Assembly: GCA_030295235.1 (NCBI GenBank)
Contig: AP026150.1
Location: 558,001-622,000 of the forward strand
Reading direction: 5' to 3'
Source: Fistulifera solaris
Taxonomy: Eukaryota
DNA: 64,000 bases
In this document: piece after piece, positions 2,036 to 44,644 of the stretch
Position numbering within the stretch: position 1 is the first letter of the stretch
Layout of the letters: each line of letters begins with the position of its first letter
The notes under the pieces: model-generated
Databases searched by the model: none
Told to the model about the DNA's origin: nothing
Seen by the model: only the letters and a program-made list of their open reading frames with translations
Position numbers and translations under genes: made by a program

Positions 2036-2663
2036 TCTCCTTATTTCTGCAAAAGTATTTGTACCATCTCTTGTAATGCATCCTGGAAAGCTTCTGATTC
2101 CAGCACAATTTGTTTTCAATTCCATTAATAATGCTAATCAATGCGCGCAGTAAGAACACACTATTTAGAAATTAAGCTCGAGTCGACCATAGAATGAATA
2201 GTGTTATCTGAAGGTCTGGGTTTGGTTGTGTTAAATGTATACCTTTCTCTGAATCTAAAAGATTGCGGACAAAAAGTAGCCAACAAATTTTGGTATTCCT
2301 TGCCGCTGCTGTGAAATGGTAAAAAAAGTTTCACATTGCTAGGTCAATCATCTGGGCATTATGGATGGATTTTGTACAGTGATATGTATAGTCAACACTT
2401 TGGTCCTGTACGAAATGAGCAATGAGTGTACAACATCAAATAAATAGATCTAGACATGAGCTCATGAACATTTGATTGTCAATATTGTAGGTATTAGGAT
2501 ATCATATCAATTGACAGCCAAAAAAATGCACCAGTCTGTACATGTGTTTGTCACAGCTTTCTCACGTGCTTACCACTTTAGTTGCATCAGAATCTGACAA
2601 GACAAGCCATTTAAAAGGCAATGCAAGTTGGTGAAACAAGTAGAGCAAATACATTCTCATTTG

Positions 2664-3906
2664 TCAGCCCTTGAATAAGCCAGGCATTTCAACCTCATCT
2701 TCCTCTGCCTCACTCTCATCTGCATTACCGACAACGTAACCTTCTGACGTTGGCGCGTTGCGGGCTTCCTGTAACCGATTGTTGAAGTAGCCAACGACAA
2801 TTGCCAGCAGCATCAGTCCCAAGAAGGGCTGATAGGCTAACCAAGTAATGGCAATCACCACCACTTCAATCATGAGGGCAATTGGGAGCATGACGCAAGG
2901 GTCTGCAGTACCAATAATAACACGCACCAAGGGGATGCAGGTGCCAACAAAAAGAAAAGGGTTGCGCCAGGATAAGCAGAGCGGAAAAGGTAATCAGGAT
3001 TCCGACCATTCGATTCTTCCATGCTTGGAAAATGATAGTCCCCTGAGCATTATCGTACATATCAAACGCAGACAAGCTCCCGCGCTCAAAGAGCAGTATG
3101 GGATAGCCAGACCGAAAGGTTTGATATGGTGCCAATGTGTTTCCCACTTGAGCAGCAATGATGGAAACTGTTTGCGGCGAAGTTACTATTTGATAAGTAA
3201 TTCGTAGATCTCCAACTTGAGGAGATGAGGGATCATCTCCATAGTAGAATCCGTTTGAACCATACACCTGCATTCGATTGCGTATTGTTTCATTTGGAAT
3301 ATGTTCAACACTCACACCCTCTTCCATATCCTCAAACCAATTGAACTTTTGAATGATTGCATCGTTATTGCTTAGAACATAGGCTCCTAGTTGAATTGGC
3401 GTTGCTACAAACTGCTCGGATGTAAAGAGCATAGCGGTAGGGTTTTCATGGCCCTCAGGATCATGAAACTCATCCGATGGGTGCAACATTGTCTGCCATC
3501 CCTGAGTGTAGGTGAATACTGTGCCTCCTGCATCATTGCTTGAAGAAGACACCTCTTCGATCCATTGATACATTTCCACATGGCGCGCTAACCGAAGCGC
3601 TTGCGAGGGTGTGACACCCAAAACAATGTCATGAGCCGACTTTATGGCCACTGCATCTCCTGTGATATGCACCGGTGTTCCTTCCCGACTAGGATCTATT
3701 TCATTCATCATGGTAACTCCAAAAGAGACAGTATGTCGTTTTCCTGAATCAAGAGATTGATGTTGCGCAACAACATTTACTTCATTCCATATCAGTAGAC
3801 ATAGTGCGGACACCAGAACAAGCATCCCCGCCCCTGCTCGGACCGCAAAGATCAGAGCTTGATTTCCAAATGACTGGTGCACGCTGCCGGGAAACATACG
3901 CGCCAT
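2664..3906 (-). CDS. TMEM43 / DUF1625 family membrane protein
   Basis: LIWNE, LARHVEMYQWIE, GHENP, PQVGDLRI, VSIIAAQ and C-terminal IAITWLAYQP segments resemble TMEM43. Frameshift in the A-run near 2950. Confidence 0.8.
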
Positions 3907-4839
3907 TTGACAGGATAAGCTGCGACGTGTCTTTAAAGCCTATATATACAAGTAAGAAAGAGATTGTGACGGAGACGGAATGAAAACACTTCTTGCCTCG
4001 ACACTTTTTTTTTTCTCCTTTCGGCGCCTTTTTGCGTTGTTTTCTGTGATAAAAAGATTCAAACCGGTACTCATCTGCAGCCGACGACTCTCTCGGGACT
4101 GACTAAGACTCGGGATCTGTCTCATCACGAATGAACTCAAAGTAGCTAATGTTGTGCAACAAGACTTGCTTTTTAAAGATCATTGTCATCCTCCAGAAAT
4201 CAGACCAAGGCATAGATTTTATCTTATTTCTTTTGCCATCTGTCTTAGGCGGTAAAATAGAGGATCATGAATTGGAACTGAAAGACAAACAAACCACAAT
4301 TCTGAAAATCCCCATCTCATATAATCTTCCACGGCTGGATTCTTCAAACGAAATACAGGATAAGCTGAGTTCTTGAGTTGAACATTACAAACCTATAACC
4401 TGCAGCATTATATGGGAAATGCCGGCATTCTGTCCGTAATTCCGCTTTTGCGTGACGCGGAACGATACTCGTGACTGACTCCACACCTATGCCGCTTTGG
4501 ACAGTTTCCAGAATTATTGCCCGTCACGAACACGCAACAACTTTTGGATGCAGTCTAAGGTGCGCAGTATAAGTAACATAGTCCTAATTTTTTCATTTGC
4601 GTTTGCGCATTTTTTATTGCGCTGCTTGCGCGGCGGCACACTGTTGCCGCGTTTCTTCGTCGTCCGTTCCGTTGCCTCATCACAATGACCTACGCATTAT
4701 TTCCTTTCACAAACAAGAACCGTACCTGATAGTTAGTTAGTTTTGAAAGCTACAACAGCAGACTACGGAGTATTTGACTGTGCTGTTACGGTTTCCCATT
4801 TGTTTTTTGAATATCAAGATTTCGTTTTAAAGAAGGAGA

Positions 4840-14352: not shown

Positions 14353-17300
14353 CTAAACGTCCTTGGTACTTACGGTCGAGTAAAATCGTTTCATGGAGTC
14401 ACTCAACCGACGTAGACTTTCCGAATTTAGTTCACGTTCCAACTGCAAGCGATCAATGGCTTCGGCTCGCTTGATTTCGGATCGTTCCAGCGCAGCAGCC
14501 AGCGACACGATTTGCTGACGTAATGTCTTGACATCATCACTGGTGCTTTCTGTGGCATCATTTAAAGTCTGCGCAATCGATTTGTCTTTCGATAAGGACT
14601 CGAGTTGCCCCATTTCCTTTGTAAGGCGATCCACTTCTGCTTCCCTCGCCGCTAAACGGGCACTTGTCGTTTCCAATGACCGCTCCAAAGACTCTACTTG
14701 TTCCCTTAGGTCAGGAACATTCTGGGCAGCTGCCAAATTCCGCTTTACGCGCTTCAATTCACGTTCGATCATTTCGTACTTTTGCTCCCATTCTGTGACG
14801 CGATGAATCACTTGATTCAAGGCTTGGCGCTTTTGAGACAGCTCGTTCTCTAGCTGCTGGTGTGTAGTCGAATCGACCATTCCTTCTAGCTTCTTTTTCG
14901 CCGACAGCAATTCCTGGCTCTTGGATGCCAGAAGGCGTTCTTTTCCATCAGCACCGCCTCCAATTCTAGTACACGATGTTCAAGGTCGCCCGTATTCGAG
15001 TCTTGCGCTATAGTGTTGCGTAACCGTTCCTGAAGTAGTTGCGTCTCTCTTTCAAGATGGTTGCGCGCCTCGGTCACTTGTTCACACTGAGCCTGTAGAT
15101 CTTTGATTTGACCCAGCATTTTCAAGTTTTCAAGACGCAGCTGTTCATCGATACCAGCATTCGAGTGCAGCACGGTCAACTGTTCCGAGAGTGAATCTCT
15201 CTCTTTAGCTGCGCATTCCAACTGAAAAATCAAAGATTCCTTTTCTCTCACAAGTTCATTGAATGACACTGACGCCGCTTGAAGTTCGCGATGCAAGTGT
15301 TCAATTCCTTCCGCCTTATCGTTGTCCACAGCAATGCTTGATTTTGAACAACTAATGGACTCCATCTCAGATTGAAGCGTAAAAAGCTGATCTTCGGTTC
15401 CGTCCAGTTGCTCCTTGATCAAGGCAAATTGAACCAGCAACTCTTCATTTTCTTCGGTGAGAGCATCTCTGTCATTGATAGCTTGTGTTAAGCGACGTTG
15501 ACATTCACCGAGCGTAGCATCCGTCTCGACGATTCGGTTAGCTAGTTCATCACGCTCCGACTTGAAAGCGTCTCTTTCGCTAGAAGAGGCTGACAATTGA
15601 TTCAGCGTTTCGCCAAGTTCTGCCTGTAGCGCATCTAAACGACTCTGCTGTTCTTGTTTTGTGTGATCCATTTTCTTCAGCGTCTTTCCTAGTTCGGCTA
15701 AATGGTGTGTAGTCGTGTCTTTTTGTTTCTGTAGATTATCCTTCTCATCAGAAATACGCTTGATCTCCCTGCTTAACAATTCAATCTGACTTTCAAGGTT
15801 ATCACAGTTGACTTTCTCCTGTGCGGAACTCTTTCTGAGCGACTCAACCTCCGCCTGCAGTGCTTTATTTTCCATTTGTAGTCGTAACAGACCGTCATGC
15901 AGCTCTGAGCTTTGTAGGGTTGCGACTTCCGATGAATTGTTCAAGTTTATTATCTCATTGTCCCTTTTCACGATAGTTTCTTTCAGTAGCAATATTTCGT
16001 TTTTGAGCGATTCGAGCTCCTCCTTTGCTTGGAATTCTGCGGCCTTGGAGTTTTCTCCACTCGTCTCAACAAAATTCTGCAGAGACCTCAGAGCTATATT
16101 GTTAGAAGTCAGCGTTTTCTGTAAGCGGTCGCGTTCTTCGGATAAGCTAGTGACCTCTTTAGCGAGGAACTCGGCCTTTTCTTTATACTGCTTCAGTTCA
16201 GCAACTTGCTCCAAAAGCGCGGGTCTTTCCTCGTCTCTGGCAGCGACTGCATTCTCGAGTGCACGACAATCTGCGGTTCTCTGTTCGACAATAATGTTTT
16301 GCTGCTGCAGCTCGTGTTCATGACGTCTCTGTTGCTCATTCAACTGCCTTAATAGTTCTTCTCGTGCATGGCGTAGTTTTTGAAATTCGGCCTCGCGTGC
16401 TTGTTCGCTACGACGTGATTCAGCTTTGACTTCTTCCATCATCATTGCGGATGCTCTAGCTTCTTCTTGCTGCGCCTCTTGCACGTTTTGAAGTTCTGCC
16501 TGTAACTTTTCGCATTCAGCTTCTTTCATCGTCAACCGATCTAAGATAATAGTCTCGTGTCTCCTCTGCTCCTTGGTCATTTCCAGTTCTGTCTGCAACC
16601 CACGGTTCTGCTCCGATAAATTAGAGCACGTCCCCTCAAGCTCTGTGATATGCCTTTGGAGCCTTCGGATTTCACTGTCTAAATGGAATGTCCCGTCAGA
16701 ACCATGGGAAAGAAAGGCACGATCACCCGTCCCATGATTGGAATGAGTTGGCGATGAACCATCTTGTACTGTTATTGAAGGAAAGAGAGGGCCAGGACTT
16801 TGCGGTAACGATGTTTCAAATCCACCTCTTCTATGAGGCGTTGACGGTGGAGTATCAGCATCAGCAAACGACTTGCTCGTTCCGTCTTGTTCTCGGTGTA
16901 AATTCAAAATGTTCGACGGCTCTTCATCCACGGCAGGAATGGAATATGTGTCATTCGTAATGGAAGTATCAAATCGGACCGACATACGCTCTTGATCGGA
17001 GGCTATGGATTGACTAGAACTGCGTAAAGCTCCTCGAAGGAAGGCATTCGTTACAAGAGCAGCTTTATCAGACATACAAGCCTCCGACCCGTCGAAATCG
17101 ATCTCATCTTCCCAACCGTCTCCGTCGTCACAGCTTCCATTCTCTGATACAGTGGCTAGCGCGTCAACTGTCGATCCACCTTGTGAAGGTGCGGAGGAAA
17201 CCCCCGATGTTGGAAGATGATCAACTACTGGACCGTACTTGCTATCGTCCTCTTCATCATCCTCTGATAATTGTGAACGGGCAACAGTGCCAACAGAGTC

Positions 17301-20300
17301 AACTTTAAGAAGATCCTTCTGATCAGGTAGCTGGTCGACAACAACCTTAGTCTCCAAAGGGGGGTTCTGAAGGCGCTTCAGAGGCGTCTTCTTTGCTCAT
17401 GGCTCGGCATTCGGAAGCTGTGACCTGAGTAGCCATAGAAGCATGAGATAAACCCGGCGATAAGACAGTCGGGGTAGCATCGACAACAGGACCAAACTCG
17501 TCTTCCCTAGGATCAACCTGGAGTTGCGACTGGGCACCAATAGTCAATTCGGATGCAGCATCCCGTGCAATCTGCGCAACTACCGAATCCGGTGCAGGAA
17601 TAAAGTCTACAAGTTGCTCCTCTTCAGTCTGGTCAACCGGCTCGTCGATTCCCGATTGGGGATTGGGAGCCGCTTCTGCCGACGTTCCAGCATCGTTCTG
17701 TCCCCAGCTATCATCTTCACCTTCTGTACCGTCGGCATCGTCTAAATCTTCTGCCACCACGGAAGGTGCGAACGCGATAGTCGAAGCGGCACCGGAAGGG
17801 TGCTCAGGAGTCCCAGGAAGTGGTTGAATTGGGGTAACATCGACCACTAGGCCAAAATGAGATACTCCTTCTTGAGTAGTGTCATCGACAACAGATAATA
17901 TCTCTGACGGATCTGCAGCCACACCAGTCGACGCATCTCCGTACCTGGACGCATCGCCGTACCGTGAATCCGATCGAGGAGGTACATGATCAACCAGCTG
18001 ATCTTCTTCTGATCGCAACGGTCCTGGCATTTCCTCGTCAACAATCGTTTCGTCACCGACTAACGACCCCTCGATAACAGTGTCCTCACCCTCTAAAGTA
18101 GCCTCATCCTCTTCGCCAAGCTGGACTAAAACGGAATCTGAGCGAAGATTCATCGGAGCAGGAGTCAGCGGCGTGTAGTCAACCACATTACCGTAAACAA
18201 CCTTTTCGCCAGTGCTGTCAACATCTCCATCTTCTTTTGTCAAGCCTTCTGAACCTGTCACATCGACGGAAGCTTCGCGAACAAGTGATGACACAGGTCC
18301 TATTTCGGATGGTGTTTGATCAACTACTACAATTTCGTCACCGGCAATTGTAGAGCTTGGTTCTTCCCCATCATGACCACTCTCTTGATCTTCCAAAACC
18401 GGATCCTCCTGATCCCAGCCACTGGCACCTCCAATGGTAGAATCATAGCAACTGTCGTCTTCAAAATCCTTTTTAAAGTGAACAGCAAGAGAATTGGCCC
18501 CTGAATCGGACACAGAAGGCCTCGGAGTTTCAGGCAATACGTCAACAACGGGCCCGTAGTTCATTTCATTCTCGTCGTCATACACTTCTTCTTCCACTGA
18601 CATTTCTGTGTTGCGGGTTACATCTGCCCCAGCTGCTAGTGCAGCTACGGATGGATCCAGCTCCGTGTCATTTTCCGCTGGCATCTCCGATGGCGTATGA
18701 TCTACAAGATGGGAGTGCATGGTGAGTTCGGAAGAGAATGTGGTTATTTTCTTCCGAGAGCTCTTGCGGTCTACGCCCGTTGAAGCGGTTTTCTCACTCT
18801 CTTCGTCATCTAGAATGTTGTCATCCTCCCAACCACGTGGAGAAGCAACATCAGACGCTACTCGTTCACCAATTGTTGAATCCCCGTAATAGCTCTCGTC
18901 CATTCTGTCATCTTCCTCAAAGTCTCCTTTCAGCGCTGAAGCATGAACATCCATTGAACAATTACCCGAATACGAAACTGAACGATTTGGGGTCCGTGGT
19001 AAATGATCAACAATAAAACCAAAATTGATTTCATTTTCATCATCGTATACCTCTTCATCCTCACCGTTGCCTGTATCTCTTGTAAGATCCTCCTCGGCAG
19101 CAAGGACTTTAACAGACGGGTCTAATACAGAGTCGGTTCCATCCCCTGGCAGCTCCGAAGGAGTGTGATCTACAACGTAGATCTGAGTTGTAAGTTGCGA
19201 AGAAAACGTAGCCGTCTTCTTTTCAGGACGTTTTGTTTCCAAAGTCATGGTTGTATTTCCCATTTCTTCTCCCTCGTCCTGATCTTCATGATCATCATCG
19301 ACAAGAATATCATCGTCATCATCCCAACCGCTATTTGTGCCGCCAGCCACTATTGAATCTCCATTCAGTGTGTCGTCCATTTCTTCATCTTCTCGTATAT
19401 CTTGTTCAAGAGCTTCGGCATGAACAGCCAGTGAACCGGTAAAAGGAGCCGGTGGGAGGTCATCCAAGGAACAAAGAGATTCTTTTCGAGACGAAGCAAC
19501 AGGTGTCAAATCAACCACCAGCCCAAAGGCATGTCTACTATTTTGTGGATCGCAGTCCACAAATTCATCTTGGGCCGCAATGGAGTCTATCTCAGGAGCG
19601 AGCACATCCACAGAGGCGTCGGTAGACGGCTGCGGCTTTATCTGAGATGGAGTGTGATCGACGACAGTGGGTTCCTTTGGTTCTTCAGGCTCATCAATGA
19701 GAACCGAGAGGTCGTCTTCATCGTCGGCCCATCCGCTAGTCTCTCCGATTGTCCCGTCTCCATCATTACCTTGCACCGCCAACGAGTCTCCCCGGACCAG
19801 AGGAATTGCAGGCGTTCGCGGCAAGTTATCTACTAAGGGAGCAAAATTGATTTCGTCTTCATCGTCATAAACATCTTGCTCTTCTTCAATAAGGCGATCG
19901 TTTGGATCACCCACCGGGCCCGTATCACGAGTTCTATCATCAGCAGCGGCCAAAACAGCCAAAGAAACGTCCGAAGCCTGAATCAAGTGCTCTCCGCTTA
20001 AAGGGACGTGATCTACTACCATTGTTAAAGGATACACTGTTTGCTGAAAGCCGGCACCAGTCTCCCCATCGTAAGTAGCATGTCTAGATCCAATCTTCTC
20101 TTCTGCAACCTGATCCGTGGGCCCCGAAAGATCTAAAGCGAAATCATCGTCATTCCACCCATCATTGGTGTCAGTTGGTTCGTGTGGAGATTCTTCGTCG
20201 CGAAGAGGCCCAAGTACCACCTCGGTGTGTTGGGCAGCCGGAAGTTCCGTTTGCAACACCATTTGAGATCCGGAAAGATTCAACGAGTCATCTTCCTCAT

Positions 20301-20790
20301 TCCACCCGTCATTTACATTGATTGACTCTTGTAAACTCACATCTTTCATCGGTTGCGGAACGTCTGGTTGTCTCGACGAACACGAAACATCGAAGGCTTC
20401 CTCTTCATTTCCCCATCCTTGCTCCTCGGGTGCTGTGATTTGTGTAGCCGGCATCTCGTCGTGCAAATCCGGAATTCCCTCCCAGTAGTTTTGTTGTGTG
20501 TCTACCTGATCAAGAACTTGATCTAGTTCGTCGTCATTCTCCGCCCAGCCATCCTCTTCATACTCCTCATCGTAATCATCTTCGTTCGGTTGTGTCACTT
20601 CCGCGAGGAATTGCGTCAGTCGTCCGCTCAATCGATTGACACCGGCGGCAAGACGTGCCGAAGGGGGTATCATATTCCTATTATAGTCCTCTGCTTCCTC
20701 TTCATTCGCGCGCTCGCTTTCGGAGTATTCTTTTTCTTCCTCTTCTCCCCAACCATCCGGTTGTGTGGCACGCAATAAATTTGACCACAT
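14353..20790 (-). CDS. Very large (~2100 aa) protein: acidic repeat-rich N-half and long coiled-coil C-half (golgin/tether-like)
   Basis: Three abutting same-strand ORFs (17347..20790, 14886..17357, 14353..14910). The VVDxxP repeat continues across the ~17360 junction and the heptad pattern continues across the ~14900-14945 junction, so these are probably indel-split parts of one gene. Confidence 0.7.
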
Positions 20791-21721
20791 TGTGATTTCA
20801 GCGAAGCGACTACGGAGTGACTGAAAGGATTCTGAAGAGTCTTTTCGTCGAACAAGCAGCTTCTCTTGTCAGACCTTGTCAGAGAAACAAAATAAGAATG
20901 AAAAGTCAATGAAATAGAGGCTTTTTGTTGATGCAAATAATAGCAAAATACAACATCAACAACAACAACGAGCGACCAAAAACGCGATCCTCTCTGCGAT
21001 CTCGTCTCCTTGTCCCTTGCCTCTCGCCGTGACCGCGAGACTACAATCAATGTGACAGTAAATCGAAAGGGATCCGTTACGAACACGTACATTTTCAACG
21101 GATGGCACTGGCACTGACGACTCAGGGACAACACGGCAAAAACCAAAACCGCCTTCTACCACATTCTTTTAATCCGCTAGAAACGGAAGATTATTTGCTT
21201 ATCATGCCAAGGCAAGTGTCGACATTTCTTTCAACGCAAGAAAATGGAGGCAATTTTTTGTAATGTATCAAAAGTCTACGTCTAACTCAAGTAGAATCTC
21301 GTAGGGAAATTTATCAATGTAGGTGGCACCCGGAACGTATCGAATTCGGTCTCATCAATTATTCCCGGGTCCGACAACAACAAGATTCGTCGATACATCC
21401 CGCAACAAAGCTTTATAGAATCCGTTAACAAGAATTGGCATGAATTGGGACATCAAGCATGAAAAAGACAACATATGCAATGCTGCAAATGTCTACGTGA
21501 AACCCACATCGGCCCTCGTAGAAAAATTAATCGACGATATCTTTGCCGCGATTGTCGGTATCGTCGCTTTTCACAAACGTAGCAACTTAACTTGTGTTAG
21601 TTTAGTTTTTGCAGCTTTTTGAACACTAGTTTGCTTCTGTCAGTTAGCATACTGAAACAATATGTTCTATTCGTTACAAGATGTAATAATGTATAAGTCA
21701 GAATCATGGTGTCCCCAGAGT

Positions 21722-23075: not shown

Positions 23076-25218
23076 CACTGTCGCTCTTTATCGATTGCAG
23101 TCAACCTTGGCAGGGATCGAGGCCTCAGAGAAGAAACAAGAAGAAGAATAGAGAATCAATTTTGGCTAATACCGGCTCCATGCATTATCATGCTGTGCAG
23201 TTTGCGGCGTCTAGCTCGTCGATCAACAAAGACGGGTTTGATAGAAACGAAAAAGCCTCGGTGGAGGTGGCAGGGGCAAGCGGCACCCAATCCCAGAGTT
23301 CTTGTACAATCCATACTATACTAGAATCATCTTTCTCGCCAAACGTGTCTTTCATAATTCCGAATAGTTCTTTTTGAACCATAATCGTAAAACACTACTG
23401 TCAAAAAATCTTGTCTGTTGTCAACAAATGAATAATGTTTGAGACCTCACATCAGGTTACAATAAAACAATAACGGTTTCGATTTCGGAGTAACAAATAA
23501 TTGGTTGCAACATGACGTCATAAACTGGATACAGCATACCTGGTACCTGGTACTGGTACAGCTTTTCTACAGAGAAGCCATTCAACATTCAACCTTCAAA
23601 AAATCCTTTTGGTGGTTCCTTTATGATCTTCTGTGTTCAAGCTTCAAGCAGGCAGCCACAAAGAGTACCGCACTGTTCCACTGACCGCTGTGCAGTCTTT
23701 TGGTCGGGTCATGTGAAACGTCCAATCGCTGTGCAGGAATCGGCTGGAAAAGGGAATCCGTAAAAAAATCCGTTCACTTTTCGACGGAAGGAAGAATGAT
23801 CCTTTCTCTTAATAGTCTATTGAAGTTCACGTCTTGCTGGAAAGCGGGTAATAAGTTGATTCTTACGAAAGAGAGAGCAGGCAAGGACAAGGTTGGATAG
23901 GTCAACTCCAATCTTCAGAGCAAGAGCAACAGTTCGGAATTGATCATGGATCGTAAATGATGATGAAGCAATACGAGAAGCCTCAAGTTAGCGGACAGAC
24001 AAGAGATAAAGTGGGAAGAAGCAGGCGAGAAATTGGCAAAGTAAACTCTTGAGCAATTTTTCTTGGGACAAGCGAATAACTTTACTCCGCAATATTCTAA
24101 TTATTAAATCCTAGTCTAGGTTCATTAGAGATTCCAATAGAGAGCAAAACTACGCGAATTCAGCCGAGACTGTAAGTCCAGAGTGACGAAGTAAAGTTTG
24201 TTGCTTTTGTAGCAGCGAAGTAGGTCAAGTGTCTGGGCAGTGCGAATGGGGTCACAATTCCTCTTTAGCAGACGACAAGGGAGTGAAAGCCGACTCGTGT
24301 TGAGCATCCTCAGTTAGCATTGTCTACAGTCGCAGGATAGTAGTGAAAGGGATCTTTTACTAACGAAATGTCACTAAAAGCATCGACCTAGTTTTTCGTG
24401 TTTGGCCTCTCCCTGCTCCCTGGGTTGATACTTGATACCTTTTCTAAAGCTGGTGCGACATTATCGAGATTTGGCAAAGGATATCGTTCCACTGTAACGA
24501 AAGTGCAGCGTGGTTGTAGAAAGAGTACCTACCTCTACACGATCCTTCGCAGTCGACGCATCAAGTCAAGCGATGTTTGATCGAGGCCGTTTTAATGACA
24601 ACAACGAACTTGAAACACACCACCTGTTGCGTCAAACAACCTCCAACACGTTTCGAAAGAACAAATCTTTCTTCGTCTATCATCGCAATCATTGATCGTT
24701 CCCAATGACGAATTGCTGTTTAGGAAATTACTGTAAAAGCCCTTCGAATAAGCCGTAAGTACTTGTGACACGCTGTTGTTGTGAAAAGCTAATTTGCAAC
24801 GAATGTTTTCTTTTAAGAATCATCATTTACCTCAACTTTTCGTGAACAGAACCTTGATTTGCGGTCTCTGTCGCAAACAGGTACACTCGGTTGTATTGGG
24901 ATGTTCCATCGGTCCAGGTAAGTCAAGCAAGAGTGCAGCAAAGAGAAAGAGAGAGGTCCAGATAAACATCATCGCTTGGCTTTCATTTGTCACACTATCC
25001 ATCCGTACATTTTCTCACACGATGTGATCTCGCCTTCCGCTTGCTCGACTCATTTCCTTTTACTTTCAAAAGCATGCGAACTGCCTCCCCATCATCATGT
25101 TTATCAGCGAACCTTACTACCCTTCGGCGACCCCGGTCGCCTTTCGTCTTCCGCGTACATTTGCTTGGCATGCAGTGATAATGCGACCAAAAACATTGTT
25201 CCCCTTTCGACGACGGTC

Positions 25219-26632
25219 ATGGCGCTGCCGGATCTTTCGTTGACACACGGGAATCACAACGATGAAGACGATGGTGATACTGACGATGCCGCTGACTTAT
25301 TACTAAAGAAAGACTTGGCTTCGACATTATCACGTCGTCGTTACACGCTAGAAGACAAATACGACGTCGTTACGAAAGTCAAAGATGATGGAACTAACAA
25401 GAAAGAAATAGCGGAACAGTTTGGTATCAACAAAGCCACGCTGAATGCGTGGTTGAGGCAGAAAAAGTCGATCATTAAACAATGCAAAGGCGTTCAAGAA
25501 CGACAACGCTTTTCGTATCAACAAAAACACGAAATCCTCTCCAAAAATCAAGCATGACAAATCCAACAAGAAGGAAATTATGGACGCCTTTGGTATCAAG
25601 AAGCATACACTCAATACGTGGTTGCGGCATCGCACGGACATTGCCCGGACGAGTGAAGAGCTGCCAGCCCGGAAAGCAAATTATCACAGTGCCATTTGGA
25701 GGATACATGAAGGCGTCGACGCCTTTTTCGCAGAAAATCAAATGCGACAAGGGAAGGATCGCATCAATATTACGGGATACGTATTGGGCGTACACGCCAA
25801 CAAAGTCAAAGAGGAACTGCTCGAACGACACGCCAATAAAGAGATTGTATTGGACGAGCAGGAAGTCAAGCATTTGATGAAATTCAAAGGAAGTGATTCA
25901 TGGGGCAGAAAATACGCCAAAGCAAAAGGATGGCGTGGACCCGAGTTCCGGAAAGGCGGTCGTGATGTAGATGTCGATGAGAATCCTCATTCGAGCAGTA
26001 GTATTTTGATCCATCATCACCAGCATCATCCGATGGAAGATACGTCCGACAGTTTAGAGCAACACACGACCCATCATCCGCATCATCATCACCGACAGCA
26101 GCATGGTGGCTTGAGTGCTAGTACTATAGACAGTACGAATATGAACCTCAGCAACATGGATAACGGCCACAAATCGGACGAGTCGTACGGGTACCATTTG
26201 TATGCACACAATTTACAGCAAATGACGGCGAGCCATCATCTGACAATGGCCCAAGCTAGTAGTATCGACCCACTCAACAATCTGCAGCATGCTCATATGC
26301 ATCATCAACAGCAACTACATTCGTCTAATGAAAACGCAATGTCCCAAGCGAATATGCTGGCGCAGCATCAGCAGCAGCAAGTTCTCCAACAGCAAATACA
26401 ACAGCAGCAGCTCCACCACCAGACACTACAGCAGCAGCAACAAACGATGCAACATCATATTCAACAATTGGGGGAACAGCACACGATCGATCGCAATACT
26501 CTCGTTGGCCACGATCCTAATCTTGCCATGGGTATGTCACAGCAACAGTCTCTTCAAGAACAACCATCGCATCTTCACAGCGATTTGTCTTCCAACGTGC
26601 CCGATCCTCGGTCATACAACACATATGTGTAA
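25219..26632 (+). CDS. CENP-B/pogo-type HTH DNA-binding protein with His/Gln-rich tail
   Basis: Two psq-like HTH repeats (KKEIAEQFGINKATLNAWLRQ and KKEIMDAFGIKKHTLNTWLRH), a Tc5-like HTH ending FKGSDSWGRKY, then poly-H/poly-Q. Frameshift in the A-run near 25545. Confidence 0.75.
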
Positions 26633-37084: not shown

Positions 37085-38961
37085 ATGAAACAGGCAACAG
37101 ATAAATTTGATCGCGATGATCCGTGGCATCAAGTGTTGCTGTTAGTCTTTTACGGATCAGTCAGCATGCTCTGGTTCTATTCTATTTCAAGATGGACAAA
37201 CTTAATCAACTCGCTGCAAGTCATCTACAACGATTGGGGCAGGACGCCTCTCGATCCTGTTCCAGGTCAATACGCGGAGGAACCCGTTGTGACGGTTCAA
37301 ATTGCTACCTACAATGAGGGCACCGTCGTTGGAGATTCTATTGCGAGAGCGTGTGCGCTCGATTGGCCCCGAGACAAGCTCTTCATTCAAGTTTGTGACG
37401 ACTCGACCGAGAAAGAGAGTATCGCGATCATCGAGAACTTGATAATGAGCTGGAGAGAAAAAGGTTTTAATGTCGAGCGCTTATTTCGACATGATCGAAT
37501 CGGCTATAAGGCGGGGAATCTTCAGCACAACTTTCAGTTCATCAAAGGAGATTACGTTGCATATCTGGATGCCGATCACATGGTAGAGCCTCAGTTTCTT
37601 CGCCGAACTATTCCTCACTTTTACGACGAGAGCGGAAAGGCAAAGACTCATATTGGGCTCGTACAAACACCCTGGTGCTACTACAACACACATCAGAATC
37701 TTCTCACAGAATGTGGTGAGTTGTCGCGCTCTTTCAACTCCTGGAAGGCTTGATAATAATTCTCACGTTTGATTGTTTCTCATTAGACGCTCTCGGGCTC
37801 GACATTCACCATGTTATTGAACAGGTCGGTCGATGTCGCTCGTATGATCTTTTTGGATTCAATGGCACGGGTGGAGTATGGAATAAACAAGCGGTTGAAG
37901 ACGCGGGTGGGTTTTCATGCGACACAGTCACAGAGGACTTGCTGCTGTCTTACAAGGCCTATCTTGCGGGTTACGTCTTCATGTACATACGTGACGCTCC
38001 CCAGGCTCTCGAAGTCCCAAGTTGCATTCTCGCACATGTACAGCAAAAACAACGGTGGACCAAGGGATGCTTGCAGGTACTGCGGATGCATTACAAAGAG
38101 ATCTTATGTTGCAAACAAACTTCAGTTGCTGTCAAGCTGGAGGCTTTCATGCATCTGAGCGGCCCACTTCAACTGATTGCTGCAGTGACGGCTTTGCTAA
38201 GCTGTCCCTATCTCGTTTTTAATGGAGTAGACTCTATCCTGGTCAAAGTCGTTTCTATCTTTGCTCTGATAGAGCCTTTTGTCGCTGCACTCCACGCCAT
38301 TGTATCGAAAGTCCCAGGCGAAAACGGGCACTACAAACACTGGTCGTCGAAAGTTGCGCGCACTCTGACAATTTTCCCTCATGTTGCCCTCCGATGCGGG
38401 ATGGCTCCATTTGAAGCCAAGGCGGCAGTAGAAGGAGTATTCTCGAACGATGCTACCTTCCACACTACCCCAAAGGAGGGCAGCGATTCCTCAAATTCAA
38501 ATGCAACGAAAGCCAAGAAACTCGCCCGAGCAACAGGAGACGACATTGCCGCTACTGTAGGGCTTGTTTTAGCCATTCTACAGTTCTTCAACATGTTTGA
38601 TCTTGATTTGCGTATGCTGCATTTTCTGACTTTCGATTTTGCTGTTTTTGCGCTGAACATTTTGATGAGCATCGGTCTCTTTATCGTTCCTCTGACGTTT
38701 CTAATTGCAAAGTACCCGTCGGTAGGCCTACGGGCACTCCATTCACTCGCAAAAACACGACATATTGTTCTTACGGTCTCACTGTTTGCATACATAGTCG
38801 GGTACATGACATGCTTTATGTCGGGAGATGAGGTGAGTATGTCAATGTGTTTCGTGCAATGTTCTCTCTTCGCCCAGTCTCATTCAAATTTTTGCAAATA
38901 AATCTAGATTGGTCTCGGATTCGCTGACTCGCAATCCACCAGTAGTATCAGTCGTTATTGA
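37085..38961 (+). CDS. Processive GT2 glycosyltransferase (CSLA/CSLC-like), copy 1, ~576 aa, no sulfotransferase
   Basis: Exons 37085..37715, 37787..38832 and 38908..38961. Motifs VTVQIATYNE, QVCDDST, GYKAGNL, DADH, VQTPW, FNGTGG, TED, QQKQRW and FHTTPK, followed by TM helices. Confidence 0.9.
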
Positions 38962-41110
38962 ATTGTGTTAATCTCCTAAGCATGACGTTCGGTTCGTTGG
39001 TAACCGAGCGCTTCACCGCACAACACTCAGGTTATGCCCTCTAGATTCTCCCGACAGATCACAGCGAGCACAGAGAGTGTCCATTAGTTGGGGTTAGTGA
39101 TGATGCGATGACCGACACCCTTCCTGCTAGAGCGTCAGAGAGCGTACGGTATGAGTTAGCTTGACCAAAAAGGTCTCACTCCAGTCAAAATGAAAATATC
39201 TTCTTGAAAGTTGCGCTACGATCTGCGTTGCACAAGCTCTTTCTCCATTCTTAAGCGCTTTACCAGCTGCTTAAAGCCGTTCGATTTTCAATGCGCACGT
39301 TACATCATGTAGAATGTGGAGTGCTTTTACATACTTGGTGTTCCTGCTCTCGGAGAACCGCAGACCTTCTATCTTCTATGCAAGTTATACGGGTTACGGG
39401 TTGCGGATACCGGTACGGTACCAGGTACCGGTACCGTAGACCTAAATCAATACCAGTACCAGAGATAAGAGTCGAAACTGGTGGTTCATAATTACCAGGA
39501 AGTAAGATTTAATGATGTCCCAGTGACAGTGACAGTGCCAGTGACAAACTTCATTCATCGGGTAACAAGGAATTCGAAAATACTTCTAAAATAATGGCCG
39601 TCGTCGTCAATTGTGATTTAATCACGAATCGAATCATCATCATTATCATTGTTATTGACCGGAGCAGCGCGCTGCCTGCGCGCAAGCGCGCTCGTCAACG
39701 CGAATACCAGGTAAATGTTTGAAAAACGGATGGTTTCAATCCCCGGAAAGTTCACAGTTTTCATTCAGAAAGCATTGAGTCTTGAGTGCCGGAGTTCCCA
39801 CTTTCTTGTCGATAGTATCTTGCATTCCGATTGTCTCAACAGATTACAGTTTGAAATAATGTGAAGTGCTAGAGTGAAAACGTGTAAACTAGGGCGTAAG
39901 AAGTCTATACGGAGTCTCATTATGAATTTGGCGTCTGCTTACGCTCCGTCGAATTTATAAACAAAACGAGTTCCCTTGTCACACAATGACACCTTTATTA
40001 TTGCCTTTTGGCATTCCGATGGGCGGGTTCTTGCTACGCAAGACGCTGGTGGCTCCAAGCTATTTCACTGTACAGTTTCTCAGAAATTGTAGTGATGATG
40101 TATCCGGAACAACCCGGAGCAACTCCTTTTGAGTACCTTTTAGGGCGCACTCAAGTACCCACTCGTGACTTAGCTCATATAAGCCCCTTAAACACAACTG
40201 TGAAAACTGTGCAAGTTTTGTAAGATTTACGCTTCGAATTTCGAAACAGTGAGCCTGCAATCTCGATAGCTTCGGAGTGTTTGATGGTAGGGAATAAATG
40301 GGAAGACAAACCAAGAAGAAAGACAAAAGAGGCTGTGCATTAAATAAATCATAACAAATAAATACTCTACCCAAAGGATATAGAAGAGGTGAAAGCGCAT
40401 TCCAACTCCATATCCAGCGCAGCGATCATCATCAGAGTGAAGCGCGATCAGCATTTGTATATAAAATTGAAATCAAAATGACAAGAGTACCAGACTCATT
40501 CGATCATAGAGATCCCTGGCATCAAGTGTTGCTGTTAGTCTTTTACGGATCAGTCAGCATGCTCTGGTTCTATTCTATTTCAAGATGGACAAACTTAATC
40601 AACTCGCTGCAAGTCATCTACAACGATTGGGGCAGGACGCCTCTCGATCCTGTTCCAGGTGAATACGCGGAGGAACCCGTTGTGACGGTTCAAATTGCTA
40701 CCTACAATGAGGGCACCGTCGTTGGAGATACTATTGCGAGAGCGTGTGCGCTCGATTGGCCCCGAGACAAGCTCTTCATTCAAGTTTGTGACGACTCGAC
40801 CGAGAAAGAGAGTATCGCGATCATCGAGAACTTGATAATGAGCTGGAGAGAAAAAGGTTTTAATGTCGAGCGCTTATTTCGACATGATCGAATCGGCTAT
40901 AAGGCGGGGAATCTTCAGCACAACTTTCAGTTCATCAAAGGAGATTACGTTGCATATCTGGATGCCGATCACATGGTAGAGCCTCAGTTTCTTCGCCGAA
41001 CTATTCCTCACTTTTACGACGAGAGCGGAAAGACAAAGACTCATATTGGGCTCGTACAAACACCCTGGTGCTACTACAACACACATCAGAATCTTCTCAC
41101 AGAATGTGGT
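37124..41110 (+). repeat. Near-identical ~594-bp direct repeat covering exon 1 of both GT2 copies
   Basis: 37124..37717 matches 40517..41110 (offset 3393), with three substitutions noticed by eye. Confidence 0.93.
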
Positions 41111-44100
41111 ATGTCGACGAAATGTTTGTGCTTCTGAATTCAATCGTTTAGAAAGCTTCGATTCGATCTAACATTCTGCTTTTTTTGTAAGATGCGCTCG
41201 GGCTCGACATTCACCACGTTATTGAACAAGTCGGTCGGTGTTGCTCGTATAACATGTTCGGTTTCAATGGTACTGGCGGTGTATGGAGAAAGCAAGCGGT
41301 TGAAGACGCAGGTGGCTTTTCTTGGGATACTGTGACAGAAGACTTGTTGTTATCGTACAAGGCACATCTGGAGGGGTACGAGTTTGTTTACGTGCGAGAT
41401 GCTCCCCAAGCTCTGGAAGTACCCAGTTGCATTCTCGCTCATGTGCAACAGAAACAGCGATGGACCAAAGGGTTCATGCAGGTCCTTAGAATGTACTACA
41501 CCGACATTCTCTTCTCCAAGCAAGCGACCTTTGCAGTCAAGCTGGAGGCGCTTATGCACTTGAGCGGCCCTCTCCAACTTGTTGCTGCTATGACTGCGCT
41601 ACTAGCGTACCCCTACCTCGTTTTCCACAAAATCGATTCCTTTTTGGTCAAGATCGTATCCATCTTGGCTTTGACTGAACCCGTCGCTGCCGCAATCCAC
41701 GCCATCGTATCAAAAATCCCAGGTGAAAACGGGCACTACACGTACTGGCACTCCAAGGTAGCGCGGCTTCTAACAATTCTTCCGTACTTTGCGCTCCGTT
41801 TCGGGATGACTCCTTTTGAGACCAAAGCTATCTTTGAAGGCTTCTTCTCAGACGATGCAACCTTCCACACCACCCCTAAAGAAGGTAGTAACTCCGCAGT
41901 TTCGGCTGTAAAACGCGCCAAGAAAGTAGTGCGAACCGGAGGCGATGACATGGCTGCCGGAGTTGGGCTTTTCCTGGCAATCCATCAATTCATCTACGTC
42001 TTTGCATTCGATATGCACATGCCCTGCCACACTGTATTCGACGTGGTTGTGCGAGCGTTGAATCTTCTCATTTGCATAGGCCTCTTCACTGTATCCATAA
42101 TGTTCTTTCTTTCAAAACACCCATCTTTGGGACAGCGAGCCCTTCACTCGCTAGCCAATACGAGACATGTGTTCCTTTCGGTTGCTCTTCTAGCATACAC
42201 GGTAGGCTACATGACGTGCTTCATGTCCAGCGGCGAGGTAAGTCTTTCTGCAAGTCTCATTCAACTCTTACATTCGATATCTCACAAAATGACATTTGCA
42301 CGTAATTAGATCGATTTTTCAATAACTGAGAAGCACACCATCAATAACACAATGTTTGCAAGTAATAATGATGATGGAATCGTTTCTCCGTCAAAGGCGT
42401 TCGAAGTGATCGACACAATTCGTCCATTGGCATGCCGACCCAAGGTAGCAGCGAAAGCGTTTTCATCTGTGATCGCCCTTGGCCTGCCTCGTACGGGTTC
42501 GACTCTAATGTTCAATTTCCTGACCGAACTCGGAAAGCACTATCCGAACATCGACAACTTGAGCCTGTTCGAGACTTTTGCGCCTGTATCAACGATGCAG
42601 CTTCCCGGTCTGACGCAAATTGTCGACATTCTGAGAAGGAATTGCGACGGGCTGGAGCCTGGCGAAAAGACAATGTTCCAGCAACGATTTGACTTTCAGT
42701 CCGAACAAGAGCTGTACGAGTACCTGCGCAAGGATGGACATCCCGATATCTATGAGCCGCTTATCGCAGCCCATTCCAATAGGTACAAGGATCCGCTGAG
42801 CTGGTTGCATTATGTCGAGAGCGTACCGTCCACCGGAGATTACGGCTACGTGGAGTACAAGGTGTTCGACCACGACATGTTGGAAATCGGCATTAGCTCC
42901 CCCGAGCTGATCGACTCGATGCAATCCCCCAACACAAAGTTCGTCATCAACTACCGCCGCAACCTGCTGGAATCATACGTGTCGCAGAAAATTGCCGAAG
43001 CCAGCGGTAACTGGGTCGGAGCAAAAACGACATCGGATGACGCCATCACGATCAACCGCCAGGAATTCGAAGACTACATCAAAGCCAAGGTAACTTATTT
43101 TCAAGAGATTCGTGAGCATCTAGATGGCAAGAATATCCCGTACTCCGTCTTCGAGTACAACACCCATTTGGGAGCAGAACCTCAGCAACGAGACACGCTT
43201 CGACACTTGCAGAAGCTGCTACGTTTGCGTGTCGATGATACGATCGTCGAAGATATCATGGCCGGACTAAGAAGGAAGAAACAATCGACGGTTCCTGTCA
43301 GGGAGCAGATTCGGAACTGGGACGAAGTCGTGCAGTGGGGACTCGGCAAGGAAAAGGACGAAGATTGGGAAGACTTGTTTGCATCGGTCGATAACAGCAA
43401 GGCGCTTGTGGCATACCAGCCTCCTACGCAGCTTGCGTGCAAAGTCGGCGCCCCGGCGAAACCCATGTCGTCTGTGATCGCCCTTGGCCTGCCTCGTACG
43501 GGTTCGACTTTAATGTTCAATTTCCTGACCGAACTCGGAAAGCACTATCCGAACATCGACAACTTGAGCCTGTTCGAGACTTTTGCGCCTGTATCAACGA
43601 TGCAGCTTCCCGGTCTGACGCAAATTGTCGACATTCTGAGAAGGAATTGCGACGGGCTGGAGCCTGGCGAAAAGACAATGTTCCAGCAACGATTTGACTT
43701 TCAGTCCGAACAAGAGCTGTACGAGTACCTGCGCAAGGATGGACATCCCGATATCTATGAGCCGCTTATCGCAGCCCATTCCAATAGGTACAAGGATCCG
43801 CTGAGCTGGTTGCATTATGTCGAGAGCGTACCGTCCACCGGAGATTACGGCTACGTGGAGTACAAGGTGTTCGACCACGACATGTTGGAAATCGGCATTA
43901 GCTCCCCCGAGCTGATCGACTCGATGCAATCCCCCAACACAAAGTTCGTCATCAACTACCGCCGCAACCTGCTGGAATCATACGTGTCGCAGAAAATTGC
44001 CGAAGCCAGCGGTAACTGGGTCGGAGCAAAAACGACATCGGATGACGCCATCACGATCAACCGCCAGGAATTCGAAGACTACATCAAAGCCAAGGTAACT

Positions 44101-44418
44101 TATTTTCAAGAGATTCGTGAGCATCTAGATGGCAAGAATATCCCGTACTCCGTCTTCGAGTACAACACCCATTTGGGAGCAGAACCTCAGCAACGAGACA
44201 CGCTTCGACACTTGCAGAAGCTGCTACGTTTGCGTGTCGATGATACGATCGTCGAAGATATCATGGCCGGACTAAGAAGGAAGAAACAATCGACGGTTCC
44301 TGTCAGGGAGCAGATTCGGAACTGGGACGAAGTCGTGCAGTGGGGACTCGGCAAGGAAAAGGACGAAGATTGGGAAGATCTTTTTCCTGGCGCTTCGCAG
44401 TCTGTGTCGTTTAGATGA
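40478..44418 (+). CDS. GT2 (CSLA/CSLC-like) synthase fused to two tandem Stf0-like sulfotransferase domains, ~1261 aa
   Basis: Exons 40478..41108, 41192..42237 and 42310..44418 all join in frame. Full D, DxD, TED, QxxRW signature. Each C-terminal repeat has the 5'-PSB loop GLPRTGST and a 3'-PB-like YRRNLLESYVS. Confidence 0.85.
42466..44378 (+). repeat. Near-perfect intragenic direct repeat: 908 bp x2, period 1005 bp
   Basis: 42466..43373 matches 43471..44378. Only one difference noticed by eye (C42505 vs T43510, synonymous). Confidence 0.95.
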
Positions 44419-44644
44419 AACAGGAATATTATAATGTATAAACTCATGACGCTTTTAGCCCGATCGAAAGATTCCGCTAGATTGTTTTGCCAATTCAATA
44501 GATTCTTTTTAATCAGTAATCTATTCCTCTCTGGACGCTTTTAGTTGCTGCCGTTTGACAGTTCGCTGAAACGCAAGAATTTATCACGCCAATGAGAGTT
44601 GAGGTCAACAAGACGCGGCAAACGATAATCGTCATATGTGCTAC

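Follow-up and report, generated by a model that had tools for sequence, protein, structure and literature searches.

A candidate membrane-bound glycan synthase carrying two sulfotransferase domains in Fistulifera solaris

We found, in a 64,000-nt window of the Fistulifera solaris genome (contig AP026150.1, positions 558,001 to 622,000; coordinates below count from the first letter of the window), a + strand gene whose predicted product carries a processive-type GT2 synthase and two PAPS-sulfotransferase domains in a single chain. On balance, we lean towards reading this product as a 1261-aa type-III membrane protein that would polymerise, translocate and sulfate a beta-linked glycan. Our literature search found no published description of an architecture combining GT2 with a double sulfotransferase.

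The spliced gene derives from three + strand ORFs (stop to stop, 40355-41137, 41191-42309 and 42310-44418 in the ORF list), which two short GT..AG introns join in frame into a 1261-aa protein. The coding exons, 40478-41108, 41192-42237 and 42310-44418, start at the ATG at 40478 and add up to 3786 nt, that is, 1261 codons and one stop, which is terminal. Exon 1 (40478..41108, 631 nt) codes for the N-terminal TM helix, at aa 17-35, and for the opening half of the GT2 catalytic domain, where DDS and DAD lie; exon 2 (41192..42237, 1046 nt) encodes the second half with TED and QKQRW, along with interface helices, FHTTPK and five TM segments; exon 3 (42310..44418, 2109 nt with the stop) carries a linker that is acidic and contains an NNT sequon, ahead of the two sulfotransferase domains. 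Intron 1 (41109..41191, 83 nt, GTATGT..AAG) is in phase 1 and the predicted intron 2 (42238..42309, 72 nt, GTAAGT..TAG) in phase 0. A single stop, formed by the last three bases of intron 2 (TAG, 42307-42309), separates the GT2 frame from the sulfotransferase frame. A preliminary description had joined the ORFs by these same introns; their coordinates and phases all hold, as do the exon lengths and intron positions by which it had matched the gene to a paralog.

That paralog lies in tandem upstream on the + strand (37085..38961) and is GT2 only. Its exons 1 and 2 (37085-37715 and 37787-38832) have the same lengths, 631 and 1046 nt, and the same intron positions as the focal gene; both of its introns start with the donor GTGAGT, and 17 codons are left after intron 2 (38833-38907), on a putative exon at 38908-38961. 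The paralog keeps the last TM helix of the focal GT2 and has no sulfotransferase; that it manages without one counts against synthesis and sulfation in one pass. Between the two genes, nucleotide identity reaches 97% over exon 1 and 70.5% over exon 2, against 53% in intron 1, 61% in intron 2 and 52% beyond intron 2. With shuffled sequence giving 50.5 +/- 3.8%, identity thus drops close to the shuffled value precisely at each donor, and the second paralog donor (GTGAGT at 38833) sits at the identical codon to that of focal intron 2. The intron-1 junction, TEC|DALGLD, is bridged gap-free and residue for residue in P0023, P0031 and the paralog, which bears out the proposed splice model there. Junction 2 sits in a poorly conserved linker, so that its exact splice site is not fixed by homology; downstream of the donor, the three nearest usable acceptors (exon starts 42310, 42331 and 42334) all enter the sulfotransferase frame, and intron 2 is probably spliced. 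The three sequencing runs containing the stretch look DNA-like: their contigs run through the introns, with no joints reported.

The N-terminal 559 aa resemble a membrane-integrated, processive-type GT2, with BcsA, hyaluronan, CesA and chitin synthases as nearest relatives. All the motifs previously taken as the mark of a processive GT2 were located, DDS at residue 105, DAD at 162, TED at 259 and QKQRW at 297, as was a gating-loop-like FHTTPK at residue 435. Pfam PF00535 matches the exon 1 part (5.6e-13) and PF13632 the exon 2 part (3e-14); BcsA matches the GT2 at 4e-18 and BcsA chains match the exon 2 part at 1e-11. A fold search with the AF2 model of the fused relative P0031 (pLDDT 82.7) returned BcsA first (1e-18), then hyaluronan, CesA and chitin synthases. 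By these matches, this GT2 has the fold of the processive synthase-translocases, and it is probably processive itself. The NCBIfam CelA match (4e-22) is far under the family cutoff (112 against 699 bits), and the focal GT2 is therefore not a cellulose synthase equivalog. Its body is similar in size to plant CSLA glucomannan 4-beta-mannosyltransferases (about 530-580 aa), whose language-model feature clusters are also the nearest (177/256 features common), at a score of 0.85 that falls under the tool threshold of 0.9. This comparison, made by those features alone, leaves the link to CSLA and mannan as only a lead. To our knowledge, CSLAs carry no sulfotransferase. Phaeodactylum walls reportedly have an alpha-1,3-mannan backbone; GT2 enzymes are inverting, and making such a backbone from GDP-Man is thus impossible for them.

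The C-terminal part consists of two predicted PAPS-sulfotransferase folds. An HMM built from the family alignment A1 matches the spliced protein at aa 604-921 (5e-94; 42442..43395, + strand) and at aa 941-1258 (3e-94; 43453..44406, + strand). Domain 1, also covered by an AF2 model, has the 5'-PSB loop LPRTGST, the 3'-PB motif RRNLLESYVS, a Glu (FETF), a Lys (YKVF) and the Cys pair 601/671; domain 2 has the Cys pair 936/1006. As the preliminary description had stated, the PAPS-binding motifs (PRTGST and RRNLLESYVS, there given as RxNxLxxxVS) occur in both copies, and they are conserved across the family: in alignment A1, R47 is kept in 39/40 sequences, G49 in 40/40, S50 in 38/40, E74 in 41/46, K170 in 42/46, and R202 and S211 each in 44/46. 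Each copy has exactly two Cys, and the pair is kept in 20/23 and 27/27 sequences. When the sulfotransferase AF2 model (pLDDT 90) was compared by VIA-align, each of the 50 listed entries proved to be a PAP(S)-binding protein of the sulfotransferase fold; the highest Z was 11.5, for Stf0, with 3-OST-3 at 11.4. The Stf0-like fold claimed earlier is therefore recovered, though NodH ranks ahead by sequence: searched against the PDB, the family profile matches NodH at 5e-11 across both PAPS motifs, then CurM ST, TPST and Stf0. Pfam sees the domain weakly (PF13469, 29 bits). We infer that the C-terminal domains use PAPS.

The two domains form a tandem repeat with a period of 1005 nt. Segments 42466-43373 and 43471-44378 differ by one base, and all 306 of 306 residues are identical. 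The nearest relative, P0001 (94% identical, on another contig), shares both copies and the linker; its copies agree at 305/306 positions, while only 294/306 are shared between the two taxa. Near-identity within each taxon and lower identity between them point to concerted evolution by independent homogenisation, so that on the sequence comparison the duplication is genuine and homogenised.

The chain recurs, as judged by domain matches, in relatives. Searching 1.84 billion representatives by phmmer with the sulfotransferase domain yielded 93 matches. GT2, as assigned by Pfam, is followed by sulfotransferase in one chain in 6/211 gathered proteins (P0023, P0031, P0094, P0095, P0099 and P0106), one of which, P0095, is an NCBI hypothetical protein from a Bacillariaceae MAG; another of the 211, P0117, has the reverse order, with the sulfotransferase domain before GT2. 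In a 50-row tree built from the GT2 part only, a single clade of 13 rows (SH-aLRT 99) contains the six C-terminal fusions together with the focal gene and the paralog, which agrees with the single-chain fusion proposed earlier. Inside this clade the paralog is sister of the focal GT2 (SH-aLRT 100), with branch lengths of 0.21 and 0.042, respectively. Elsewhere, the sulfotransferase domain is found behind plain N-terminal anchors, single or in arrays of 2, 3 and 5 (P0004, P0003, P0002), and paired with a GT25 domain in P0017.

The earlier placement of the sulfotransferases outside the cytosol, after the last TM helix, draws support from a topology argument, which leans on analogy with BcsA. Hydropathy places TM segments in the exon 2 part at aa 330-348, 365-383, 465-483, 499-517 and 537-555. 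The last of them (TM9; 42169..42225, + strand, hydropathy 1.81) is additional to the BcsA-like TM5-8, giving three membrane helices after the cytosolic gating loop against two in BcsA; its equivalent in the P0031 model is H568-598, after H488-513 and H521-549. Of 15 relatives that lack GT2 and have 70 or more residues ahead of the sulfotransferase domain, 13 carry a single strongly hydrophobic N-terminal segment, resembling that of type-II Golgi enzymes. Together, the extra helix, the anchors of the free relatives and the conserved Cys pairs suggest that the sulfotransferases are lumenal, opposite the GT2 site. Loop charges mildly fit this orientation, the positive-inside signal being weak.

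Synthesis from two separate genes is very unlikely. The GT2 mRNA would then retain intron 2 and end at the stop at 42307-42309, or use a short alternative exon, while the sulfotransferases would start from the ATG at 42352, which is in frame 42 nt past the acceptor. The paralog is indeed a viable GT2 terminating at that point, and P0001 is known as a separate 707-aa ORF call alone, which begins inside the equivalent of the intron. However, the 72-nt gap is too small for a promoter, the donor is shared with the paralog and similarity ends right behind it, both domains are joined in seven database proteins, and the focal GT2 is nested in the fused clade. Moreover, an ORF begun at 42352, its first Met, would have no anchor or signal, unlike 13/15 of the longer relatives. 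It is highly improbable, furthermore, that the C-terminal domains are inactive sulfotransferase-like modules binding a sulfated glycan or nucleotide, for instance to hold or measure the chain: identical tandem copies are commoner among binding modules and the Pfam sulfotransferase models scarcely detect the domain, but the PSB loop, the 3'-PB Arg and Ser, the Glu and the Lys are intact in both copies and family-wide, and the high-confidence model resembles active sulfotransferases.

If the fusion is genuine, the GT2 body might still serve mainly as an anchor or scaffold in a Golgi or vesicle membrane, the sulfotransferases modifying other glycans, glycoproteins or small molecules. The occurrence of the domain on plain anchors, in arrays and with GT25 means that it works without this GT2, just as the paralog functions without sulfotransferase. 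Against this, the six C-terminal fusions all fall in one GT2 clade and the catalytic motifs of the focal GT2 are kept, which favours functional coupling over mere anchoring, and a short tether starts directly after the last channel-adjacent helix; we regard the scaffold role as unlikely, though worth keeping in mind. Slightly less probable is that the GT2 makes a short oligosaccharide or a glycolipid head group, in the manner of NodC or ceramide glucosyltransferase, for sulfation by the NodH-like domains; its product would be a sulfated oligosaccharide or sulfoglycolipid, not a wall or EPS polysaccharide. Among solved structures, NodH is the closest to the sulfotransferase by sequence, P0031 matches the NCBIfam models of NodC (7e-8) and PgaC (1.5e-18) and Pfam GT21 (4e-8), and sequence does not reveal chain length. 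Yet the BcsA/CelA matches are stronger (2.6e-32 and 4e-18), BcsA and hyaluronan synthases top the fold search, QxxRW and the FxxTPK gating loop are both present, and NodH is cytoplasmic whereas the domains here appear across the membrane.

The full reading, synthesis and sulfation by one protein, can be set beside known systems. With BcsA (PDB 4hg6, 4p00, 5ej1; sequence E 4e-18, fold E 1e-18), the focal protein shares a GT-A catalytic domain with D, DxD, TED and QxxRW and, as in processive GT2 synthases, interface helices, an FxxTPK-type gating loop and a TM bundle after the catalytic domain. Unlike BcsA, it has a single N-terminal TM helix and no PilZ domain, and it adds a C-terminal TM helix and then two sulfotransferase domains predicted to lie on the far membrane side. 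NodH (PDB 9vki, 'LPS sulfotransferase NodH'), whose profile match spans the PSB loop (RxGS) and the 3'-PB motif (R...S), and Stf0 (PDB 1tex), which has the same fold, are about 13-16% identical to the focal domain. Both sulfate sugars and are soluble, cytoplasmic and bacterial, whereas the focal domain is eukaryotic, duplicated, equipped with a conserved Cys pair, tethered to a membrane synthase and probably lumenal. Modifying partners stand at the exit of processive GT2 synthases in PgaC/PgaB and in alginate Alg8/AlgG. BcsA-BcsG complexes (PDB 9fmz, 9fmv), which appear among the GT2 fold matches, offer the likeness we propose here, a polymer modifier at the exit side of the synthase decorating the emerging chain. 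BcsG, PgaB and AlgG-type modifiers are separate subunits for pEtN addition, deacetylation or epimerisation; the focal modifier, in contrast, is covalently fused, doubled and a sulfotransferase.

We propose that the cytosolic GT2, with its BcsA-like TM channel, would turn a nucleotide sugar into a beta-linked glycan and push the growing chain through a Golgi or secretory membrane, and that the extra TM helix past the channel would bring the polypeptide to the lumenal face. On that side the two NodH/Stf0-type PAPS sulfotransferase domains, identical to each other and held beside the channel exit by a tether of about 45 residues, may sulfate the glycan as it emerges, the acceptor presumably being the enzyme's own product. 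On its domain composition, the protein is a strong candidate for an enzyme that would both build a polysaccharide and sulfate it in a single pass.

On the + strand, the region 40355-44418 reads as three successive stop-to-stop ORFs whose frames are different or interrupted. The preliminary description had joined these ORFs into one coding sequence across two introns, and our reading of the DNA bears out this splice model. Starting from the ATG at 40478 (+), a first intron of 83 nt (phase 1) extends from a GTATGT donor at 41109 to an AAG acceptor ending at 41191 (+), and a second of 72 nt (phase 0) from a GTAAGT donor at 42238 to a TAG acceptor ending at 42309 (+). Joining 40478-41108, 41192-42237 and 42310-44418 gives 3786 nt, that is, 1261 codons with a single terminal stop. 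About 3.4 kb upstream lies a tandem paralog whose exons (37085-37715 and 37787-38832, +) match focal exons 1 and 2 exactly in length (631 and 1046 nt), with introns at the same positions and GTGAGT donors at the same codons. Just 17 codons remain after the second intron of this paralog (38833-38907), so it carries no sulfotransferase. Nucleotide identity between the two genes is 97% in exon 1, 53% in intron 1, 70.5% in exon 2, 61% in intron 2 (shuffled control 50.5 +/- 3.8%, maximum 60%) and 52% after intron 2; conservation therefore ends exactly at both donors. Two homologs from the databases align across the first junction (TEC/DALGLD) with no gap. At the second, the first AG past the donor is just 17 nt away, and each of the three acceptors that follow (exon starts 42310, 42331 and 42334) leads in frame into the 702-codon ORF. 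Contigs from three sequencing runs of one study, none recorded as RNA, cover both introns and showed no splice joints, and it is from the DNA that we infer the splicing of the focal gene.

Two further observations concern sequence variation at this locus. Most 90-nt windows of exon 1 are 98-100% identical between the paralogs (37085-37715 and 40478-41108), and identity in exon 2 (37787-38832 and 41192-42237) drops to 54-61% near its 3' end; this looks like a recent gene-conversion tract ending at or near intron 1. Over 40300-44600, the run contigs comprise exact matches and also copies that diverge by about 6-9% in the stretches coding for the GT2 and the sulfotransferases (in one example, 43 differences in 516 nt); these come from another allele or strain, or from a close species, with the same gene.

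The preliminary description had also proposed that a glycosyltransferase and a sulfotransferase form a single chain, and relatives in the databases corroborate this. Among the proteins gathered, six (P0023, P0031, P0094, P0095, P0099 and P0106) carry GT2 Pfam domains followed by this sulfotransferase in one polypeptide. Their layout is collinear with that of the spliced focal protein, running from the last transmembrane helix across a linker of comparable length to the sulfotransferase domain; in a seventh, P0117 from Chrysophaeum taylorii, the order is reversed and the sulfotransferase is N-terminal to the GT2. We built a GT2-only tree of 50 rows from which the sulfotransferase regions had been removed; its outgroup was bacterial proteins of ~540 aa. 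One clade of 13 rows (SH-aLRT 99) unites all six C-terminal fusions with the focal gene, its paralog and other members represented by calls of 563-868 aa, the branch of the paralog being five-fold longer than that of the focal gene. On the simplest reading, the fusion would be ancestral to this clade, retained in the focal gene and lost in the paralog. We consider this comparison the strongest evidence that the predicted fusion is real. The named GT2 relatives are diatoms (a Bacillariaceae MAG, Nitzschia and Epithemia), and to judge from these sequences several diatoms have this architecture in hypothetical proteins that are unannotated and uncharacterised.

Other modules were found in the same families. 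Within the fused clade, P0099 (1468 aa) has a protein-kinase-like domain as well (PF00069, 2.5e-10), and its N-terminus is signal-like; both lie ahead of the GT2 and the sulfotransferase. P0017 (1969 aa) combines a GT25, a Sulfotransfer_1 domain and a single domain of the present sulfotransferase family. Additional modules of other kinds occur in GT2s from adjacent clades, some of these proteins being named as diatom: a short GH7-like match in P0110 (7.8e-7), LRR repeats in P0136 according to the precomputed Pfam listing, and DUF6492 in P0115 and P0118; P0111 belongs to the same set. Judged by these domain matches, the synthase family seems prone to domain fusions. A metagenome contig of 6.1 kb (L001) has, of a sulfotransferase domain related to P0031, just the C-terminal half, a fragment of 186 aa (3902-4462, +) that overlaps with the beginning of an ORF of 694 aa in convergent orientation (2002-4086, -). 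No GT2 was found upstream of the fragment on this contig, and it may be a gene fragment or part of a gene with introns.

The N-terminal 559 residues belong to the GT2 part. Pfam GT2 families are found on both exons (PF00535, 5.6e-13; PF13632, 3e-14), and PF00535, PF13641 and PF13632 all exceed their Pfam cutoffs. The D, DxD, TED and QxxRW motifs reported in the preliminary description are all present in the spliced protein (DDS 105, DAD 162, TED 259 and QKQRW 297), together with a gating-loop-like FHTTPK motif, and hydropathy reveals five hydrophobic segments after the GT2 domain. By sequence, the nearest proteins of solved structure are the BcsA cellulose synthases; the contiguous homolog P0031 matches them with an E-value of 4e-18, and exon 2 by itself with one of 1e-11. 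Fold was compared through this homolog: an AlphaFold model of P0031 (pLDDT 82.7), computed from an alignment of 43 rows, among them the three focal exon pieces, matched BcsA with an E-value of 1e-18 over ~590-630 columns, followed by hyaluronan synthases, plant CesAs and chitin synthases. The motifs, the sequence matches to BcsA and the fold of P0031 together argue that the N-terminal part is a channel-forming, processive-type GT2, and processive polymerisation by the focal enzyme is predicted from its sequence.

What this synthase makes is less constrained. The top NCBIfam models are CelA, PgaC and NodC, with scores far under the equivalog cutoffs. A UDP-forming cellulose synthase was rejected as an identification, P0031 scoring 112 bits against the CelA equivalog (TIGR03030) versus a cutoff of 699, and focal exons 1 and 2 scoring 78 and 55 bits; by analogy, the focal synthase would resemble BcsA and hyaluronan synthase in its working mode, yet it fails the cellulose-synthase equivalog test. 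In the Atlas, a language-model feature comparison scores 0.85 against two clusters of plant CSLA, a resemblance of lead class. One caution applies to the mannan idea of the preliminary description. The wall mannan of Phaeodactylum is reportedly alpha-1,3-linked and GT2 enzymes are inverting; it is therefore unlikely that the focal enzyme makes that backbone from GDP-Man.

The C-terminal 702 residues gave far weaker signals in routine searches. Pfam returned a weak Sulfotransfer_3 signal at the P-loop (PF13469; the two-copy ORF reaches 29.2 bits, the cutoff being 27, and each single stretch falls below it), and no NCBIfam model matched this part. Word-indexed searches with the sulfotransferase domain found no protein of near length and, at longer lengths, P0001 alone; because these searches nearly failed, we used an exhaustive phmmer search, which recovered 93 relatives. 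Against the PDB, a 46-sequence profile matched NodH (9vki) with an E-value of 5e-11 over both PAPS-binding motifs, then the CurM sulfotransferase, TPST and Stf0. An AF2 model of the domain (pLDDT 90, pTM 0.87) had TPST, the CurM sulfotransferase and Stf0 as its best Foldseek matches. With VIA-align, Z scores were 10.2-11.5 over ~200 residues (11.5 to Stf0 and 11.4 to heparan sulfate 3-OST-3), and among the matches listed 50/50 were PAP(S)-binding sulfotransferase-fold proteins. In the Atlas, the domain adjoins bacterial Sulfotransfer_3/Stf0 clusters (0.96). The 5'-PSB loop, LPRTGST in both copies, aligns with the NodH loop and is conserved in the family alignment (R 39/40, G 40/40, S 38/40); the 3'-PB motif RRNLLESYVS aligns with NodH residues 115-153, with R202 and S211 each conserved in 44/46 sequences. 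The R-x-G-S of the PSB loop, the Arg and Ser of the 3'-PB motif, one Glu and one Lys are present in ~90-100% of the family and in both focal copies. The Stf0-like identity proposed from the motifs thus agrees with both fold and conservation: the domains are assigned by sequence and model to the NodH/Stf0-like clan, and would be expected to use PAPS.

The two sulfotransferase domains form a tandem repeat with a period of 1005 nt, found by a repeat search and a script, as it exceeds the longest period of Tandem Repeats Finder (500). One base differs between 42466-43373 and 43471-44378, and the copies are identical as proteins (306/306). Such near-identity could reflect an artefact of assembly. 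This explanation was ruled out because an independent relative, P0001, a 94%-identical ORF on another contig, has the same two copies with the same copy-specific flanks. The P0001 copies are identical to each other at 305/306 positions and to the focal copies at 294/306, and the 12 differences listed for copy 1 between the focal protein and P0001 are shared by both copies within each taxon. This pattern points to an older duplication whose copies are under concerted evolution. By HMM, five copies were counted in P0002, three in P0003 and two each in P0004, P0056 and P0088, so that tandem arrays are a habit of this sulfotransferase family. The arrays of P0002 (1862 aa), P0003 (1152 aa) and P0004 (869 aa) sit behind one N-terminal hydrophobic anchor, and none of these proteins has a GT2.

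We analysed the likely disposition of the protein in the membrane. Hydropathy places transmembrane segments at 17-35, 330-348, 365-383, 465-483, 499-517 and 537-555. If BcsA is taken as the guide, the two segments that follow QxxRW would correspond to TM5 and TM6, the amphipathic stretch and FHTTPK to the cytosolic IF3 and gating loop, and the following pair (465-483 and 499-517) to TM7 and TM8; the sixth segment (537-555) would be additional and bring the chain across the membrane. The P0031 model has helices in matching order (488-513, 521-549 and 568-598). The loops assigned as cytosolic contain more Lys and Arg, a weak signal; each sulfotransferase copy contains just two Cys, both at positions that the family conserves, and N-x-S/T sequons occur at 571, 642 and 977. 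Among non-GT2 relatives with >= 70 residues before the domain, 13/15 have one strongly hydrophobic N-terminal segment, the same layout as in type-II Golgi sulfotransferases; a free protein starting from the Met at 42352 would be without such an anchor. Taken together, the transmembrane layout with its loop charges, the Cys, the sequons and the anchored relatives favour a cytosolic GT2 and lumenal sulfotransferases. The lumenal placement after the last transmembrane helix suggested in the preliminary description is thereby supported by the segment count, the P0031 helices, the Cys pairs and the anchors of the relatives. With topology and acceptor inferred in this way, the GT2 site would be cytosolic, the glycan would be translocated through the channel and the two tethered lumenal domains would sulfate the chain with imported PAPS. 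BcsA-BcsG complexes are among the fold matches of P0031; in that system a separate periplasmic enzyme decorates nascent cellulose, whereas the focal modifier is fused, doubled and a sulfotransferase.

The window is ordinary eukaryotic nuclear DNA, with genes for tRNA synthetases, EMP70, TMEM43, LRR proteins and an ion channel; short introns interrupt many of these genes. Pfam analysis of 41/75 window ORFs of at least 130 aa detected no PAPS-synthesis, PAPS-transporter or nucleotide-sugar genes nearby. An ORF at 24922-25554 (+) with HTH_Tnp_1 and CENP-B N-terminal DNA-binding matches is possibly a pogo/Tc1-like transposase remnant, and two very long ORFs at 14889-20868 (-), of 836 and 1173 aa, are Pfam-negative at 1e-5.

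Overall, what had been observed at 40478-44418 is confirmed, and its interpretation is supported within the limits of sequence, fold and comparative data: the gene is a candidate sulfated-polysaccharide synthase, and a very testable one. The preliminary description knew of no characterised enzyme of this architecture, and full-text literature outside the subscription journals yielded no account of a sulfotransferase joined to a synthase-type GT2. Diatoms release much sulfated polysaccharide, which shapes marine carbon export and bacterial succession. To our knowledge, no synthase or dedicated sulfotransferase has been identified for any of these polymers. A 2024 survey, in its statement on this group, gives the stramenopile genes for sulfated glycan synthesis as unknown (PMC11468063). 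The number of sulfotransferase heads is one in most relatives and two in the focal protein, and reaches three and five in anchored relatives without a synthase. It is conceivable, if somewhat short of probable, that the focal gene is the first recognisable dedicated algal sulfated-polysaccharide synthase, a self-contained machine that polymerises, translocates and sulfates, in which the number of tethered heads sets sulfation density and gene conversion keeps the heads identical.

A putative channel-forming synthase and lumenal sulfotransferases in a single gene offer a testable entry point, and the GT2 clade together with the sulfotransferase family provides a search marker for diatom genomes and metatranscriptomes. 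If the proposal is true, it would represent a new coupling of polymer modification to secretion, through covalent fusion across the membrane, and one gene could be enough to specify a marine polysaccharide that is recalcitrant and sequesters carbon, because the product would exit the channel already sulfated.
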